From Peptococcaceae bacterium BICA1-8 (GTDB lineage: Bacteria; Bacillota; Peptococcia; Peptococcales; BICA1-8): a stretch of DNA of 64,000 nt. Shown in pieces: positions 13,928 through 57,969 of this stretch; the stretch's first letter is position 1; the number at the start of each line of letters is the position of its first letter. Made by a program: the position numbers and the translations under genes. The stretch lies in assembly GCA_000802045.1 (NCBI GenBank), contig JUEF01000126.1, forward strand, positions 8,607 through 72,606, written 5' to 3'. Below the pieces are notes generated by a model that made no database searches, had not been told where the DNA came from, and was given only the letters and a program-made list of their open reading frames with translations.

Positions 13928-14012
13928 TTAAAATTCCTCCTAAGATTAAATTTTCTTATTTAGTCTCTGCTATTCCGCCCACGAGCATTCCTGCTGGTCG
14001 TGTTTTTTTGGA

Positions 14013-14049
14013 ACAATTCGGGGACGGTTCTTGACTTGCGCAAAAATTA
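14013..14049 (+). repeat. Dispersed repeat, copy 3
   Basis: ACAATTCGGGGACGGTTCTTGACTTGCGCAAAAA. Confidence 0.75.
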
Positions 14050-14204
14050 AAGGGTATATAAACTGATTAATAGAGTAATTTGCAGAAAGTTAATTTATTG
14101 CCTAGAATAACTAAGAGGTTAATACAACTACTACGTGGTAATAGATAACATAAGAATTGCTGTCTATACGTGACGAAGAAATGGGTTTAATTAGGAGGAC
14201 TATT

Positions 14205-23924: not shown

Positions 23925-24611
23925 TCACTTTTTCAGTTTTTTAGCGATTGAGTTGCCTAAATTTTGCATACCCATAACCATAATAATCAGAACTGCTAGA
24001 GTTACAACCATTACATCGCCTTCATATCTTTGATAGCCATAACGGATAGCAAGGTCCCCTAAGCCGCCACCGCCAACAACACCAGCCATGGCCGAAGCAC
24101 CAATCAAGCTGATCGCGGAAATAGTCATGCCCAGGACCATGGTTGAGCGGGTTTCCTTTAAAAGCACCTTGGAAATTATCTGCCAGGGGGAAGCACCCAT
24201 AGCTAAAAAGGCTTCAATAATACCTTTGTTTACTTCTAAGAGAGCTGACTCTGTGACCCTGGCTATAAAGGGTGCTGTAAAAACAACTAGAGGTACAATA
24301 GCTCCTTTTAGCTGAATCGTTGTCCCGACGATTAGTCTAGTAAAAGGTGTAATAGCAAACATTAAGATAATAAAGGGAATTGCCCGAATTATATTAATAA
24401 TAAGATTGGCTATTTTATAGAACCATTTCTGCTCCCAGATGTGCCCCGGTCTTGTGATAACAAGGAGAACTCCCAAGGGAATGCCAATAACAGCTGCTAT
24501 GCTTAAGGCAATCAGGACCATTAGCAAAGTTTCATAGGTTGCTTTTGTTAATTGAGGTGTTATTTCTAAAACTCTCAGCCAGATGGGCTCTAATAAATTA
24601 GTTTCAGTCAT
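23925..24611 (-). CDS. metI: Methionine ABC transporter permease
   Basis: IRAIPFIILM, SAMAGVVGGGGLGDLAIRYGYQR. Confidence 0.95.
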   Translation of the reverse strand: MTETNLLEPIWLRVLEITPQLTKATYETLLMVLIALSIAAVIGIPLGVLLVITRPGHIWEQKWFYKIANLIINIIRAIPFIILMFAITPFTRLIVGTTIQLKGAIVPLVVFTAPFIARVTESALLEVNKGIIEAFLAMGASPWQIISKVLLKETRSTMVLGMTISAISLIGASAMAGVVGGGGLGDLAIRYGYQRYEGDVMVVTLAVLIIMVMGMQNLGNSIAKKLKK

Positions 24612-25629
24612 AATTTAACACCTCCGTGATAACATTATGGTCCTTCAAAATTTTAATTCCTTCATCAATAGATTGGCAGTCCCCCGTAAGCTCAATTATT
24701 AAACGACCCAAGGTCTGATTCTTAATTTGGATTATATTACCGCACAGGATATTAGGCCAGAGCGGTAATTCTTTTGCTATTATGGCTAGAACTGGTTGGG
24801 AGGCGGAACCACCTATAAAGGTTAGTCTGAGAATTTTGTTGTTCTCCTTTTTAGTTCTAAGCTTTTTTAAAACAGACTCAGAGAGCTCATCCTCCATAAT
24901 GCTTTTGATAAAGTTTCTTGTAGTCTGAGTCTTGGGCTTTGTAAAAGTATTTAAGACGGTATCCTCTTCAATAATTACCCCGTCTTCTATTACGGCTACT
25001 TTATCGCAGATTTTTTTGATAACATGCATTTCATGGGTTATTAAAAGGATAGTAATTTTGAATTTCCGATTAATATCTAATAATAATTCTAAAATAGCTT
25101 CAGTAGTCTGAGGATCAAGGGCAGATGTAGCTTCATCACAGAGTAGGATGTCAATATCGTTAGCCAAGGCTCGAGCAATAGCTACCCGTTGTTTCTGACC
25201 GCCTGATAACTGGCTGGGAAAGTTATTTTTTTTATCCTCTAGTCCTACAATATTTAAAAGGTTATTTACCTTTTCATTTATACTTGCTTTGGGAATATGG
25301 GAAAGCTCTAAAGCCACTGCTATATTTTCAAAGACTGTACAGGTTTCCAGGAGGTTAAAGTGCTGGAAAATCATACCAATTTTTTTCCTAGCCTCCCGCA
25401 GCTTATGCTTTGTTAGTTTAGTCATTTCCAGCTCGTTAACCCGGACGCTGCCTTCTGTTGGCTTTTCCAGCATATTTACGCAACGGATTAAAGAACTTTT
25501 GCCGGCGCCGCTAAAACCAATTACTCCAAAAATCTCGCCCTTTTCTACTTTCAAGTTAACACCTTTAAGTGCCTCTACATTACCCTCATTGCTCTGGTAG
25601 GTTTTATATAGATTTGTGATTTCAATCAT
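24604..25629 (-). CDS. metN: Methionine ABC transporter ATPase
   Basis: GFSGAGKS, LSGGQKQR, LLCDEATSALDP, C-terminal NIL domain. Confidence 0.95.
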   Translation of the reverse strand: MIEITNLYKTYQSNEGNVEALKGVNLKVEKGEIFGVIGFSGAGKSSLIRCVNMLEKPTEGSVRVNELEMTKLTKHKLREARKKIGMIFQHFNLLETCTVFENIAVALELSHIPKASINEKVNNLLNIVGLEDKKNNFPSQLSGGQKQRVAIARALANDIDILLCDEATSALDPQTTEAILELLLDINRKFKITILLITHEMHVIKKICDKVAVIEDGVIIEEDTVLNTFTKPKTQTTRNFIKSIMEDELSESVLKKLRTKKENNKILRLTFIGGSASQPVLAIIAKELPLWPNILCGNIIQIKNQTLGRLIIELTGDCQSIDEGIKILKDHNVITEVLNYD

Positions 25630-25664
25630 ACAAATTACTCCTCATTTAGTTACTAGTAGTTTTA

Positions 25665-25908
25665 GGCATGACGTCTTCCTAGATAATTCATGACGTCGGC
25701 ATGACAGCTAAAATGCAAGTCTGCATGTCAGCATGACGGCTTAAGAGTTTACTGCACGTCGGCATGATTAGATAAATTATGCTTGACAAGGCAACCAAAA
25801 GCAATAATGCCGATCCAAAGAAGTATGTGTAAGACGTTATGCCGTCCCAAAAACTTTCCCGTAAGTCGTCATGCCGACATAAAACTCTAACCCCAAAGAC
25901 GTCACGCC
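25665..25908. repeat. Palindromic array: 4 direct plus 4 inverted copies of a GTCGGCATGAC-like core at ~32-bp period
   Basis: GCATGA at 25666, 25699, 25731, 25762; A(T/C)GCC at 25807, 25839, 25871, 25904. Confidence 0.85.
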
Positions 25909-25940
25909 CACCGACCCCATAGCTTAGCCCCTAAGATAAT

Positions 25941-26756
25941 TTACCAGGCGGCAACAACAGAATCTTGGAAGTCTTTATTTATAAAATCTTTAATTTCCTG
26001 GGATTGGTAAAGCTCTACAAATTTCTTGAATAAAGGATTATCTTCCTCTCCCTCGCGGACAACAATAATATTTACCCAAGGAGAGTCTTTAGGCTCGATG
26101 AAAATTGATTCTTTAACAGGTGACATTCCAGCCTGCACAATAAAATTAGTGTTTATTGCAGCCGCTGCTAAATCAGGCAAAGTGCGTAAAATCATGGGTG
26201 CCTCTAGCTCGACGAACTCTAAGTTTTTAGGATTTTCTACAATGTCTTTTACTGTAGCACTTGAGCCAACGCCTTCCTTGAGTTTTATTAGCCCTGCCGC
26301 TTCAAATAGCTGTAATGCTCTGGCTCCATTAGTGGGATCATTTGGCAGGCCTACCTTATCTTTTGCCTTTAGTTCATTAACATCTTTAACTTTTTGCGAA
26401 TAAATACCCATAGGGAAGTTTACAGAATTAGCAATATTGGAAAGCTTTAGTTTGCGGTCTGCTTTAAATTTATCTAAATAAGGTTCGTGTTGAAAGCTGT
26501 TTAAATCAATGTTTCCATCGGCCAGCTGAATATTTGGCTGGACATAGTCATTAAAGGTAACAACTTCAATTATTAAATCTTCTTTAGCTGCCAGCTCCTT
26601 TACCTTTTCCAAAATAGCTTCATGGGGACCAGCGGTAACCCCTACCTTTAGCTTTTGTTCTTCTTTCTTGGCAGAGCCACTGCCTCCGCAGCCTGCAACA
26701 AAAAATGTAATAATTAAAATTAAAGATAAAATACTAAATAATTTTTTCATGTACAT
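25941..26756 (-). CDS. metQ: Methionine ABC substrate-binding lipoprotein
   Basis: Lipobox VAGC; FNDYVQPN, FQHEPYL, PNDPTNGARAL. Confidence 0.95.
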   Translation of the reverse strand: MYMKKLFSILSLILIITFFVAGCGGSGSAKKEEQKLKVGVTAGPHEAILEKVKELAAKEDLIIEVVTFNDYVQPNIQLADGNIDLNSFQHEPYLDKFKADRKLKLSNIANSVNFPMGIYSQKVKDVNELKAKDKVGLPNDPTNGARALQLFEAAGLIKLKEGVGSSATVKDIVENPKNLEFVELEAPMILRTLPDLAAAAINTNFIVQAGMSPVKESIFIEPKDSPWVNIIVVREGEEDNPLFKKFVELYQSQEIKDFINKDFQDSVVAAW

Positions 26757-26810: not shown

Positions 26811-26850
26811 AAAATAAAGCCCTCTTCTATCTGGTCAGATAAAAGAGGGC
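26811..26850 (-). terminator. Riboswitch expression-platform terminator
   Basis: Minus strand GCCCTCTT...AAGAGGGC followed by T-rich tract. Confidence 0.75.
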
Positions 26851-26872: not shown

Positions 26873-26980
26873 CTCTTATCTGTCAGACATTACTGTCTGC
26901 AGGAATTGGCACAGCACCTAAATAAATAGGCCAGTTGCCGGGCTTCATCGGGCCAGTCCCTCCACCTCTCTGAATAAGAG
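26873..26980 (-). ncRNA. SAM-I (S-box) riboswitch
   Basis: Minus strand CTCTTATTCAGAGAGGTGGAGGGACTGGCCCGATGAAGCCCGGCAAC...GTGCCAATTCCTGCAG...CTGACAGATAAGAG upstream of metQ. Confidence 0.95.
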
Positions 26981-27034: not shown

Positions 27035-27063
27035 AATATATCATGCTGGCCGTAAGCTGTCAA
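27035..27063 (-). promoter_or_regulatory. SigmaA promoter for the met operon
   Basis: TTGACA-N17-TATATT with extended TG. Confidence 0.65.
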
Positions 27064-55215: not shown

Positions 55216-55914
55216 ATGGAGAACCCCTTGATTTTAGTTGTTGATGATGAGAGCAAGATTAGAGAAACAATTGCTCAATTTTTAAGGGAGCAGGGCTATC
55301 CTGTGGAGATGGCTGCTAATGGCAAGGAAGCTCTGGAAATGCTCAAGAGCAAAAAACCGGATTTAATTCTTCTGGATTTAATGCTTCCAGGAATTAGCGG
55401 AATAGAAGTTTGCAAGCAAATAAGAAAAGATTCCCAGGTACCAATTATTATGTTAACTGCCAAGGGTGAGGAGATTGATAAACTAATCGGCCTAGAATTA
55501 GGAGCAGACGATTATATTACAAAGCCCTTCAGCCTCAGGGAAGTAGAAGCAAGGATGAAGGCGGTTTTACGGCGAACTAATAGCAGCTTGACGGAAATAG
55601 AAAAAGAAGAAATACTAATATTTAAATACCTAGAGATCCATCCTGAAATTAGAGAAGTGCTTGTCAACGGGAAACTAATAGAACTGACACCATCGGAATA
55701 CGCCATATTATTAACCTTGGCCCGTAGTCCAGGTCGTCCCTTTAGCAGGCTGCAGCTATTAAATTCTACCTGGGGGGAAAGCTATGCAGGCTATGAGCGA
55801 GCTATTGATACCCATGTTAGCAACTTAAGGAAAAAAATTGAAACAGATCCCCATGAACCTACTTTTATCCAAACAGTTTATGGAATTGGGTATAAATTTG
55901 GAGTCAACTTATGA
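55216..55914 (+). CDS. OmpR-family response regulator
   Basis: VVDDE, LDLMLP, GADDYITKPF, TVYGIGY. Confidence 0.95.
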   Translation: MENPLILVVDDESKIRETIAQFLREQGYPVEMAANGKEALEMLKSKKPDLILLDLMLPGISGIEVCKQIRKDSQVPIIMLTAKGEEIDKLIGLELGADDYITKPFSLREVEARMKAVLRRTNSSLTEIEKEEILIFKYLEIHPEIREVLVNGKLIELTPSEYAILLTLARSPGRPFSRLQLLNSTWGESYAGYERAIDTHVSNLRKKIETDPHEPTFIQTVYGIGYKFGVNL

Positions 55915-57281
55915 AGCTTTCAAGAAAATTGAGCATAGTATTAATTATTGCTGTTTTAACTGCCGGCATCCTAATCAGCGTTTTTTCCTTAGAAGCTACA
56001 AAAAGCTCTTTTAATCAGTATGTTTTTAAGGTTAGGGAAGCCCAGCTTGATCAGTGGCAAGAAGTCTATACCCAGTATTATTTATACCAGGGTAGCTGGC
56101 AGGATATAGAAAATCTAAGAATGGGTGGTTCTATGATGCGCGGTCAAGGGCAAGGCATGGGCTGGGGTGCAAATCGGCAGGATGTTGTTTTAGCTGATTT
56201 GCACGGGAAAATCCTTAGCCATCCTTATCCGGACCAAGTAGGGAAAGTATTAGAGGATAGCCTTATTAATAAAGGAAGACCTATTAAAATAGCTGGTAAA
56301 GTAGAAGGCTATATTTTTCCCCAAGAAATCTTCATCCCGGAAGCCCGAGAATTGGAACGAAAATTTATTACATCTGTGCTAAATGCTGTTGTTTTGGGTA
56401 CCCTGTTAGCCAGCTTAATTGCTATTGTTTTTGGACTATGGTTATCTAGGAAAATGACTAGGCCGTTAGAAGAGCTGGCTAATGTTTCACAGAAAGTGGC
56501 TAAAGGTGATTTTGGGCATTTTATATCATTGAATACTAGGGATGAGTTGGGAAGTGTCGCCCAAGCTTTTAATAAGATGTCTCGGGAACTAGAACAAGCA
56601 CAATTTACAAGAAAACAAATGTTTGCTGATATCAGCCATGAGTTACGAACACCTTTAACAATATTAGGAAGTAGGATTGAGGCTGCGTTAGAATCTAAGG
56701 GTATATTAGATGCACCTCAGTTATCCTCCCTTTATGATGAAGTTATCCGTTTGCAGGGCTTAGTTAAAGAACTGCAGGATTTGAGTAATTTAGAAGCAGG
56801 GCAAATTAAGCTGAATATTCAAGAGATTGACCCTAGACAATTTACACTGGACTTAAGTTTTTTGTTTGAAGCTGAGGCAAATGCCAGGGATATTAAGTTT
56901 GAGATCTTTGTTGATGAAAAATTGGAATTAATTCAAGCTGATATGCAAAAGTTAAAGCAAATTATCTTAAACCTATTAAGTAACGCTTTTCATTATACCC
57001 AGCCCGGTGGCTTTGTCCAGCTGAGGATGGAAAAAATCGGAGTTAATGCAGTTATTAAGGTTTTAGATAGTGGACCAGGAATTGATAAAGAGGATTTGCA
57101 AAACATTTTTCAGAGGTTTTATCGAGCTGATAAGTCAAGAAATCGAGCTACGGGAGGTACAGGCTTAGGTCTTGCTATTGCAAAAGGATATGTGGAAGCC
57201 CATAATGGGCAAATATCCGTAGAAAGCATCGTCGGTAAAGGCACCATGTTTATTATAACTTTACCGTTGGGTGATATATAG
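55911..57281 (+). CDS. Sensor histidine kinase (BaeS-like)
   Basis: HAMP, SHELRTPL, DSGPG, GGTGLGL. Confidence 0.95.
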   Translation: MKLSRKLSIVLIIAVLTAGILISVFSLEATKSSFNQYVFKVREAQLDQWQEVYTQYYLYQGSWQDIENLRMGGSMMRGQGQGMGWGANRQDVVLADLHGKILSHPYPDQVGKVLEDSLINKGRPIKIAGKVEGYIFPQEIFIPEARELERKFITSVLNAVVLGTLLASLIAIVFGLWLSRKMTRPLEELANVSQKVAKGDFGHFISLNTRDELGSVAQAFNKMSRELEQAQFTRKQMFADISHELRTPLTILGSRIEAALESKGILDAPQLSSLYDEVIRLQGLVKELQDLSNLEAGQIKLNIQEIDPRQFTLDLSFLFEAEANARDIKFEIFVDEKLELIQADMQKLKQIILNLLSNAFHYTQPGGFVQLRMEKIGVNAVIKVLDSGPGIDKEDLQNIFQRFYRADKSRNRATGGTGLGLAIAKGYVEAHNGQISVESIVGKGTMFIITLPLGDI

Positions 57282-57417: not shown

Positions 57418-57542
57418 TGTCAGACGGAAAATATTCACTTAGAAGTATTGTCAGACGCAAAAGAATGACCTCAAAGTAATGTCAGACGCGTAATCTTCAC
57501 CCGGTAGCAATTGTCAGACGCAATATTTAACCAAATAGTGAT
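57418..57542 (+). repeat. Four-unit array, period 31/31/32 bp, invariant TGTCAGACG core
   Basis: Cores at 57418, 57449, 57480, 57512. Confidence 0.88.
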
Positions 57543-57603: not shown

Positions 57604-57969
57604 ATGATAGGGGAAAAATTAAACACACCGGAAACTAATAAAAAAGTTAAAGGAAATGCATTTGTGCCAACGGAAGAAGGTTCTGCTACATTAGAGAGTC
57701 TAGATGCTGAGGGTGTAACAGTAAAATATGAACAGGGGCCTACCGAATATACTCAGGGTTTTCGTGGTGCACCCTGGAGCAGAGAGCCCAGCTTAAAGTT
57801 TATGTGTGAAGAGGTGGGCGTAAATATGGATAACTTAATTTCGGGAATTGAAAAAGACAAATCTTACACTGAAATGGCTAAGGAATTAGGAGTATCTAAA
57901 AAAACAGTACAAGCTTTAAAAGATCGTTTTATGACCCATGGTTTGCAGTCAATCGAAGGGCAGGACTAA
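57604..57969 (+). CDS. Conserved hypothetical protein with C-terminal helix-turn-helix
   Basis: AAGGAG RBS; QGFRGAPWSREPSL motif; YTEMAKELGVSKKTV HTH. Confidence 0.75.
   Translation: MIGEKLNTPETNKKVKGNAFVPTEEGSATLESLDAEGVTVKYEQGPTEYTQGFRGAPWSREPSLKFMCEEVGVNMDNLISGIEKDKSYTEMAKELGVSKKTVQALKDRFMTHGLQSIEGQD

Follow-up and report, generated by a model that had tools for sequence, protein, structure and literature searches.

The metQ-metN spacer of Peptococcaceae bacterium BICA1-8 carries a copy of a lineage-restricted family of modular foldback repeats

The spacer between metQ and metN in the window, a stretch of 64,000 nucleotides from Peptococcaceae bacterium BICA1-8, was found to hold one member of a family of modular foldback repeats (family A) that is restricted to the lineage, has not been described before and is built of phased 32-nt units. 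In behaviour the family resembles BOX, REP/BIME and MITE elements, and in architecture foldback transposons or transposon ends with multiple sites. With a probability of about 0.62, the met array is a lineage-specific foldback repeat copy of MITE/BOX/BIME-like kind, co-transcribed with the S-box-controlled metQNI genes and derived from a family that would have spread in trans in the past. Most likely, it is a tolerated passenger on this transcript, and by analogy its hairpin may also favour metQ, acting as a processing site or as a barrier between the cistrons. The genome to which the window belongs (G000) comprised 3.98 Mb in 162 contigs, with 37% GC.

The met operon and the element in its spacer

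The met genes were arranged on the minus strand in the order metQ-metN-metI, with the binding protein leading. According to Pfam, metQ (25941..26756) encoded an NlpA/Lipoprotein_9 substrate-binding lipoprotein, metN (24604..25629) an ATPase with ABC_tran and NIL domains, and the third gene (23925..24611) a metI-type permease (BPD_transp_1). The S-box leader was complete, consisting of a promoter-like site TTGACA-17-TATATT (27035..27063, minus strand, 11/12 matches) upstream of a SAM-I riboswitch (26873..26980, minus strand; Rfam, 87.2 bits, E 2.5e-20), and of a terminator-like hairpin with a T-run (26819..26850, minus strand), presumed to be the riboswitch expression platform.

Between the metQ stop at 25941 and the metN start at 25629 the spacer measured 311 nt (25630-25940), in which neither promoter-like nor terminator-like signals were detected by scanning. 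Because no promoter-like site was present in the spacer, expression of metN and metI requires transcription to run through the foldback element, and it would be carried as part of an S-box-controlled metQ-metN-metI mRNA. No ORF of at least 60 aa was identified inside the spacer, and Rfam covariance models run against 25630-25940 gave no match at E values up to 1, the only real match nearby being the SAM riboswitch at 26873-26980. The element lay about 5-30 nt past the stop of metQ, its upstream neighbour, and 36 nt short of the start of metN, its downstream neighbour, whose ribosome-binding site was intact.

The element occupied 25662..25915, perhaps reaching to about 25935 via a degenerate outer linker and unit, and thus probably extends slightly past the end at 25908 given in the initial annotation. 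It was composed of eight 15-nt cores resembling GTCGGCATGACGGCT, four of them direct and four inverted, which could pair in nested order. The terminal plus-strand core TTAGGCATGACGTCT (25662..25676) constituted the A-end, with the left terminus (TTA)GCATGACGTCT, where homology to other copies began. It was followed on the same strand by GTCGGCATGACAGCT (25695..25709), GTCAGCATGACGGCT (25727..25741, overlapped by a partial copy at 25719-25733) and the innermost core GTCGGCATGATTAGA (25758..25772), all placed by repeat finding. A central loop (25773..25799), located by folding both strands, separated the two arms. The minus-strand arm, also from repeat finding, was made up of the reverse complements of ATCGGCATTATTGCT (25800..25814, innermost), GACGGCATAACGTCT (25832..25846), GTCGGCATGACGACT (25864..25878) and GTGGGCGTGACGTCT (25897..25911, outermost), and the last of these bore the right terminus AGACGTCACGCCCAC, which was placed with the help of the copy alignment as well. 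The cores were spaced at 33/32/31 nt in the plus arm and at 32/32/33 nt in the minus arm, so that the phased four-plus-four array in a spacer of about 310 bp, as given in the initial annotation, was fully recovered.

The nested arm pairs of that annotation also reappeared, both with a repeat finder and in the minimum free energy (MFE) folds. The repeat finder returned the pair 25665-77 / 25896-908 (13 nt, 92%) and the pair 25759-69 / 25803-13 (11 nt, 91%), and both outer stems were present in the MFE folds of the plus and minus strands. Folding of the minus (sense) strand gave -95.7 kcal/mol (z -3.3) and that of the plus strand -83.4 kcal/mol (z -4.9), with 0/100 shuffles as stable in either case. 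The core GTCGGCATGACGGCT contained no internal stem, and pairing took place solely between distant units.

A decayed coding repeat, already considered in the initial annotation, or a chance pattern could be proposed for such an array, as a period near 33 nt would correspond to 11 codons. This explanation was effectively refuted, since the alternation of 31, 32 and 33 nt keeps no reading frame, the units occurred in both orientations, no ORF ran across the spacer, and the core was enriched about 8-fold in the genome.

Copies, unit structure and positions of the family

When G000 was searched for the 11-mer core with at most one mismatch, 88+85 sites were obtained versus 9+14 in the reversed control (173 versus 23, about 8-fold). 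A profile search with the 32-nt unit revealed 269 units in 42 clusters, among which 39 contained at least three units, so the genome-wide search proposed at the outset did yield other copies of the array. The '+' block was followed by the '-' block in 37 of these 39 arrays; the reverse order was found in none, and two were single-arm. The arms consisted of 2-8 units, with means of 4.0 and 3.9, at a period of 31-33 nt, they differed by no more than one unit in 29/37 arrays, and the 39 arrays were 86-525 nt in length, with the foldback repeats of the family put at about 190-525 nt.

Each unit was composed of the strongly conserved 15-nt core GTCGGCATGACGGCT and 17 weakly conserved nucleotides, which were G/T-rich with an A/T tract. 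In this weakly conserved part, G was preferred at +20, A at +23 and T at +27, with a tract roughly like GGGTTAAATTTT. BLAST with the met copy retrieved other copies that were 72-83% identical over about 100-250 nt, linkers included (for example C150:1114-1368 at 80%), and in the subfamily alignments, which contained 9-12 copies, the linkers were conserved position by position. The linkers had at first been described as unrelated; this was right for those within the met copy, but between copies of the family they were homologous position for position. They are therefore not unique spacers, and the suggestion of a guide-RNA-like precursor found no support.

The A-end was recognized in the subfamily alignment as an abrupt start of similarity at (TTA)GCATGACGTCT. 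The approximately 125 nt nearest to it were far better conserved than the opposite arm, which terminated in AGACGTCACGCC(C/G)AC. The sequence GCRTGACGTCT occurred at 62 sites in G000, 61 of which lay within arrays. The outer units, GCATGACGTCT and GGCGTGACGTCT, were inverted relative to each other, and so were the entire arms. Copies of family A were short, non-coding, dispersed in many places and furnished with terminal inverted repeats, which are among the properties by which MITEs are recognized, and the presence of modules together with polarity makes the element BOX-like in its sequence organization.

Contigs of the assembly tended to break at or beside arrays, as at C66:22394-22750 (contig end 22774) and C78:224-317 (near the contig start), and a contig of the congener G001 broke at the site orthologous to C152:29500. 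Copy numbers taken from these draft genomes are therefore lower bounds, and for these metagenome-assembled genomes the arrays are, in practical terms, one source of fragmented assemblies.

Where ORFs were called to the left and right of a copy, the two flanking genes were co-directional in 32/35 cases, convergent in 2/35 and divergent in 1/35. The co-directional share was thus 91%. Across all pairs of neighbours it stood at 82.7% (p=0.12), and among pairs at least 150 nt apart at 71.6% (p=0.004), hence the bias is modest and consists mainly in avoidance of divergent promoter regions. According to Pfam, the neighbours were classical operon partners, including ilvN-ilvC, gpmI-eno, uvrB-uvrA, uvrA-uvrC, carA-carB, hisD-hisB, clpC-radA, valS-folC, sdaB-sdaA, ybeY-dgkA, fba-pfk, hpt-guaA, upp-cdd and metQ-metN. 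The median distances were 27.5 nt from the upstream stop and 53.5 nt to the downstream start, both approximate as they depend on unit-match boundaries and longest-ORF starts. With respect to transcription, the A-end lay 3' in 8/11 copies, so orientation was not fixed.

A sister family (family B) with the core GCGTCTGACA and a period of 30-32 nt was found through 8-mers recurring at 31-34 nt. It was as abundant as family A and formed 24 clusters of at least three units in G000, which were either '+' then '-' or single-arm, with only one orientation in 13/24. With the rotated unit consensuses of both families placed in register as GGTTAAATTTT.G.GTC[GGCA]TGAC, the units of A and B look related, as judged by reading the consensuses without a statistical test. 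One half-array of family B was located in the window itself at 57418-57527, with four '-' units at 31-32-nt spacing, between the '+' ORFs 55911-57281 and 57604-57969. The other 8-mers phased at 31-34 nt in G000 were set aside as 8- or 16-nt tandem repeats.

Heptamer tandem repeats were also plentiful in G000, where TRF identified 527 arrays of period 7 (ACTAGTC 71, ACTAGCC 66, ACCAGTC 43), for instance at C103:14034-14079 and C150:1078-1095. We take these heptamers to resemble the STRR repeats of cyanobacteria. In the relatives G001, G004, G006 and G008 they occupied the same intercistronic spacers, in many cases immediately upstream of the ribosome-binding site. In the TRF results, a heptamer repeat lay within 80 nt of a family A element in only 2/39 cases. 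Tandem 33-nt units containing the 11-mer GTCGGCATGAC were observed in high-GC Acetobacteraceae/Rhodopila MAG records (L062:3990-4140, L088:945-1045 and L024:225-345). They were rejected as kin of family A, as each unit formed a hairpin of its own (GATGCCGAC..GTCGGCATGAC), and they probably belong to an unrelated REP-type family, with the common string and period being coincidental.

Distribution, conservation and level of recognition

A two-unit pattern was present in 5/88 species genomes from the class of G000, all of them in the window's own family (f1), with 43 matches in G000, 6 in G001 and 3 each in G007, G003 and G002; the count for G002 is doubtful, as its control gave 6, and this genome was matched in DNA BLAST as well. 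In a wider scan of contigs, real arrays were found, among the matches listed, only in low-GC Clostridia-type records (L046, L050, L084 and L034). The low-GC records bearing arrays included, again among the matches listed, Clostridiaceae bacterium BRH_c20a and Peptococcaceae bacterium UBA3933, and most of the 80 loci inspected from these matches were chance matches in high-GC genomes. BLAST of the met element against phages and plasmids gave no match. The single match in the viral contig scan was a chance one in DNA of 67% GC, and the single match of the A-end motif in the metagenome contig scan had no units; both were discarded.

Among the elements of G001, 8/9 that were inspected occupied a site orthologous to one with an element in G000. 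Between the two genomes identity amounted to 89.7% in cores (652/727), 83.3% in linkers (1208/1451) and 77.8% at flanking third codon positions (3253/4182). Both cores (p=7e-15) and linkers (p=8e-6) exceeded the third codon positions, and cores exceeded linkers (p=5e-5). Orthologous copies differed by indels of exactly one or several whole units, and the single-arm array C74:24542-24627 was conserved in G001. Orthologs were more alike than paralogs, so simple concerted evolution does not account for the extra conservation. That conservation exceeds the synonymous rate points to some constraint, for which a purely selfish passenger would have no need. For the fba-pfk spacer, L155:1320-1700 and C133:31540-31900 of G000 were about 96% identical in cores and linkers, with 86% in the surrounding 2.9 kb, which is unusually strong for non-coding DNA.

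Replacement was also observed. At 4/4 compared C152 sites of G000, G001 had no family A and possessed heptamer repeats or, in one case, a family-B element instead. In G001 the metQ-metN spacer contained heptamers together with a half-array of family-B-like kind, in G008 it had a small diverged element, and in G004 and G006 it was only about 86-98 nt long. The comparison of this spacer across relatives, as first proposed, thus showed differing content and no empty site. These intercistronic spacers are therefore repeat hot spots, in which both long persistence and replacement occur.

Evidence for selection on the RNA was sought in several ways. RNAalifold on nine homologous copies gave a covariation term of +1.46 and 1/37 compensatory pairs, with paired columns near-invariant and power accordingly low. 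In 31 copies of known transcription direction, stem mismatches comprised 37 sense G:U, 23 antisense G:U (p=0.09) and 86 transversions; the excess of four wobble pairs over two noticed earlier in the met copy was thus not borne out as a significant bias genome-wide. Core variants did not follow a mirrored order in the two arms. Together with the A-end orientation, four tests of RNA-level selection came out empty, and an RNA effect with both arms seems possible. As for the rod-like RNA first suggested, it can form in silico and has to be transcribed for metN and metI, but it was accompanied neither by covariation nor by a significant G:U bias.

The same results bear on the idea that the met operon has an RNA of its own for cis-regulation or processing, whether as a stability element, as a target of RNase III or as a source of small RNAs of about 32 nt. 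The element is on the metQNI transcript with a sense fold of -95.7 kcal/mol, and the position behind a binding-protein gene is the classic arrangement for differential expression. Such a role is nevertheless very unlikely, since the same element was found in about 38 unrelated operons, the met spacer of G001 and other genera had different repeats or only about 90-100 nt, and neither covariation, nor a significant strand bias of wobble pairs, nor a fixed A-end orientation (8/11), nor an Rfam match was obtained.

Cores were kept without a partner arm at C74:24542 and in the single arms of family B, so the evidence leans toward recognition at the level of DNA or of the unit. It could be imagined that the host selects a phased protein-binding array, in which a core of GTC-N5-GAC type would return every 32 bp (about three helical turns) on the same face and be bound cooperatively, for example by a nucleoid-organising, gyrase/IHF-like or domesticated transposase protein, with the hairpin being incidental. 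Indirectly in favour of this, the cores were conserved above the linkers within the genome and between species (89.7% versus 83.3%), both above third-codon identity. The period was strictly 31-33 nt, the single-arm array C74:24542-24627 was retained in G001, and 13/24 family-B clusters had one orientation. RNA covariation was absent, and the sister families differed mainly in the core, as expected of co-evolving protein-site pairs. Against this, no candidate protein was found, the common linkers and the specific terminal unit point to descent from a master copy instead of independent selection of sites, and the replacement of G000 sites by unrelated repeats in G001 means that no single site is indispensable. 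We consider such an array possible but rather unlikely, and a foldback repeat copy with past spread is preferred.

Under the preferred reading, the family would have dispersed at an earlier time as a non-autonomous element, with a putative enzyme that recognises the phased cores moving it in trans, and the arrays would later lose or gain units by slippage or unequal recombination. Recognition of several phased subterminal sites is familiar from the ends of Tn7 and Mu and from eukaryotic foldback elements. If the long imperfect RNA hairpin of the met copy acts at all, it would most plausibly shield the upstream metQ segment, as a processing site or a barrier between the cistrons, and the level of the binding protein would be uncoupled from those of the ATPase and the permease. 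The REP sequence between malE and malF in E. coli is an analogue for such protection on the metQ side.

Search for a mover, and comparison with known systems

Of the options first listed, a non-autonomous mobile element fitted best, with 39 copies, common linkers, a defined terminus and sister families, but an empty site, a target duplication or an autonomous partner was not found. In the sequencing runs and at the orthologous sites of G001, no empty site, skipping joint or insertion polymorphism was detected, the G001 sites being filled with other repeats. No consistent flanking direct repeat was visible at the aligned ends of the copies. In the fragmented assembly of 162 contigs, no autonomous IS or element with matching ends was identified, nor did the viral and metagenome contig scans reveal one, no transposase lay beside the terminal-motif sites, and no IS-like gene adjoined the solo arrays and contig ends of G000. 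Mobility and a mobilising enzyme are thus inferred from copy number, common ends and lineage-specific expansion.

Genes for Y1 (HUH) proteins were searched as candidate partners, and PF01797 gave 9 matches in G000 and 19 in G001, which were diverse single genes and not identical IS copies. In G000 they included C30:9927-10787, C125:3358-4227, C49:74978-75865, C117:39043-39843 and C67:247-960. The ORFs measured about 240-295 aa, several of them about 280 aa, with a C-terminal part that appeared HTH-like from the translations alone. The genes were bracketed by short inverted repeats of their own (GGGGACGGTTC.., GGGGACGGTTCTTG.. and GGGGTCAGGC..), and copies of the GGGGACGGTTCTTG motif were scattered over G000, including the window at about 14012-14050. 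These genes and their inverted repeats look like a separate RAYT/REP-like system. Arrays flanked 0/5 complete Y1 genes in G000 and none of 4 loci in G001, G002, G004 and G008, and no unit matches were present in 6/6 of the Y1 loci inspected from G000, G001, G002, G004 and G008. The link of RAYT proteins to family A was rejected accordingly, as the Y1 flanks contained their own inverted repeats instead of units, and the search for a co-occurring protein family, as first proposed, ended with no partner transposase.

It follows that a system of REP/BIME type is improbable, in which a RAYT-like Y1 (HUH) protein (about 280 aa, HTH at the C-terminus) would keep and spread the arrays by acting on hairpins of single-stranded DNA. 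The Y1 genes exist in both congeners (9 and 19 PF01797 matches, diverse single genes), and the intergenic operon positions with species-specific replacement at the same sites in relatives are REP-like. However, these genes were not flanked by arrays and had their own inverted repeats instead, the unit core formed no hairpin, and in the arrays the direct units all preceded the inverted ones with no alternation.

A more far-reaching proposal can be offered tentatively, and we rate it as rather doubtful. The arrays would be the ends of a bacterial foldback transposon of a new type, or else would serve a domesticated derivative as operators, and a putative protein would read a GTC-Nx-GAC core every three helical turns. 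Families A (GTCGGCATGAC) and B (GCGTCTGAC) would represent co-evolving protein-site pairs, and in about 40 housekeeping operons the elements would be conserved beyond the neutral rate because the array, bound or folded, tunes intercistronic expression.

With the copy of a dispersed family retained as the preferred reading, the odd met spacer turns out to be ordinary genome furniture of the lineage rather than a met-specific device, which guards against over-interpretation. A repeat architecture was documented in which arms of 32-nt phased units possess a short invariant core, and sister families differ in that core. Because the arrays are found in dozens of essential operons and change more slowly than synonymous positions do, family A offers a good natural system for studying how long intercistronic hairpins are put up with or put to use in Firmicute-type bacteria, and for asking which protein reads the cores.

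The defining features of REP/RAYT systems, CRISPR and Rfam families were not found in family A, and those of MITEs were found in part. The initial statement that no CRISPR, riboswitch or IS type could be recognised was correct as far as tested. In the searchable literature, the core strings of the family occurred solely as unrelated primers, and the portion of the literature on MITEs and subterminal repeats that was available contained nothing relevant.

CRISPR arrays share with family A a regular period of about 32 nt, in which conserved segments alternate with variable ones. In contrast to CRISPR direct repeats of at least 23 nt, the conserved part of family A was 15 nt and occurred in both orientations, the linkers were homologous between copies, and the arrays comprised 2-8 units per arm within operons, with no cas context at the examined sites.

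Eukaryotic Foldback (FB) transposons and the ends of Tn7 and Mu also have long inverted arms of tandem sub-repeats, which are direct or inverted according to the end and vary in number. Family A differs in that no evidence of common descent and no transposase were found, and its outermost bases did not have the usual TG...CA.

With REP/BIME (REPIN) elements, family A shares the extragenic position in operons close behind stops, the clustering of units, species-specific replacement at conserved sites and a possible effect on mRNA stability. The REP unit, however, is a palindrome of 20-40 nt that alternates in BIMEs, whereas the core of family A is not a hairpin, the direct block precedes the inverted block, and the Y1 genes were not array-flanked.

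In the parts of the sources available, the MITE Chunjie from Geobacter uraniireducens is described as lying within an operon without disturbing it, and as having 21-bp terminal inverted repeats and 9-bp direct repeats (PMC10969869, PMC3184786). Like this and other MITEs, the elements of family A are small, non-coding, multi-copy and located inside operons, with a stable fold and terminal inverted repeats. Unlike Chunjie as so described, they have arms built of phased sub-repeats, and no target duplication or parent IS was found for them. Chunjie was rejected as the same element, being a Geobacter MITE with a different structure in the description available.

The BOX elements of Streptococcus pneumoniae are organised as boxA-boxB(n)-boxC, with two different end modules and one middle module of 45 nt. 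In family A, by contrast, one 32-nt unit is repeated in tandem along each arm, with the two arms in opposite orientation, the host lineage is another one, and the two were compared by architecture alone. What the two have in common is a modular, non-coding build in which the number of internal tandem modules varies, ends that can pair into a long stable hairpin, and tens to hundreds of intergenic copies, often within operons, with no known transposase. BOX elements are presented as MITE-like, with lengths of 67-637 bp, in the part of the source available (PMC3184786).
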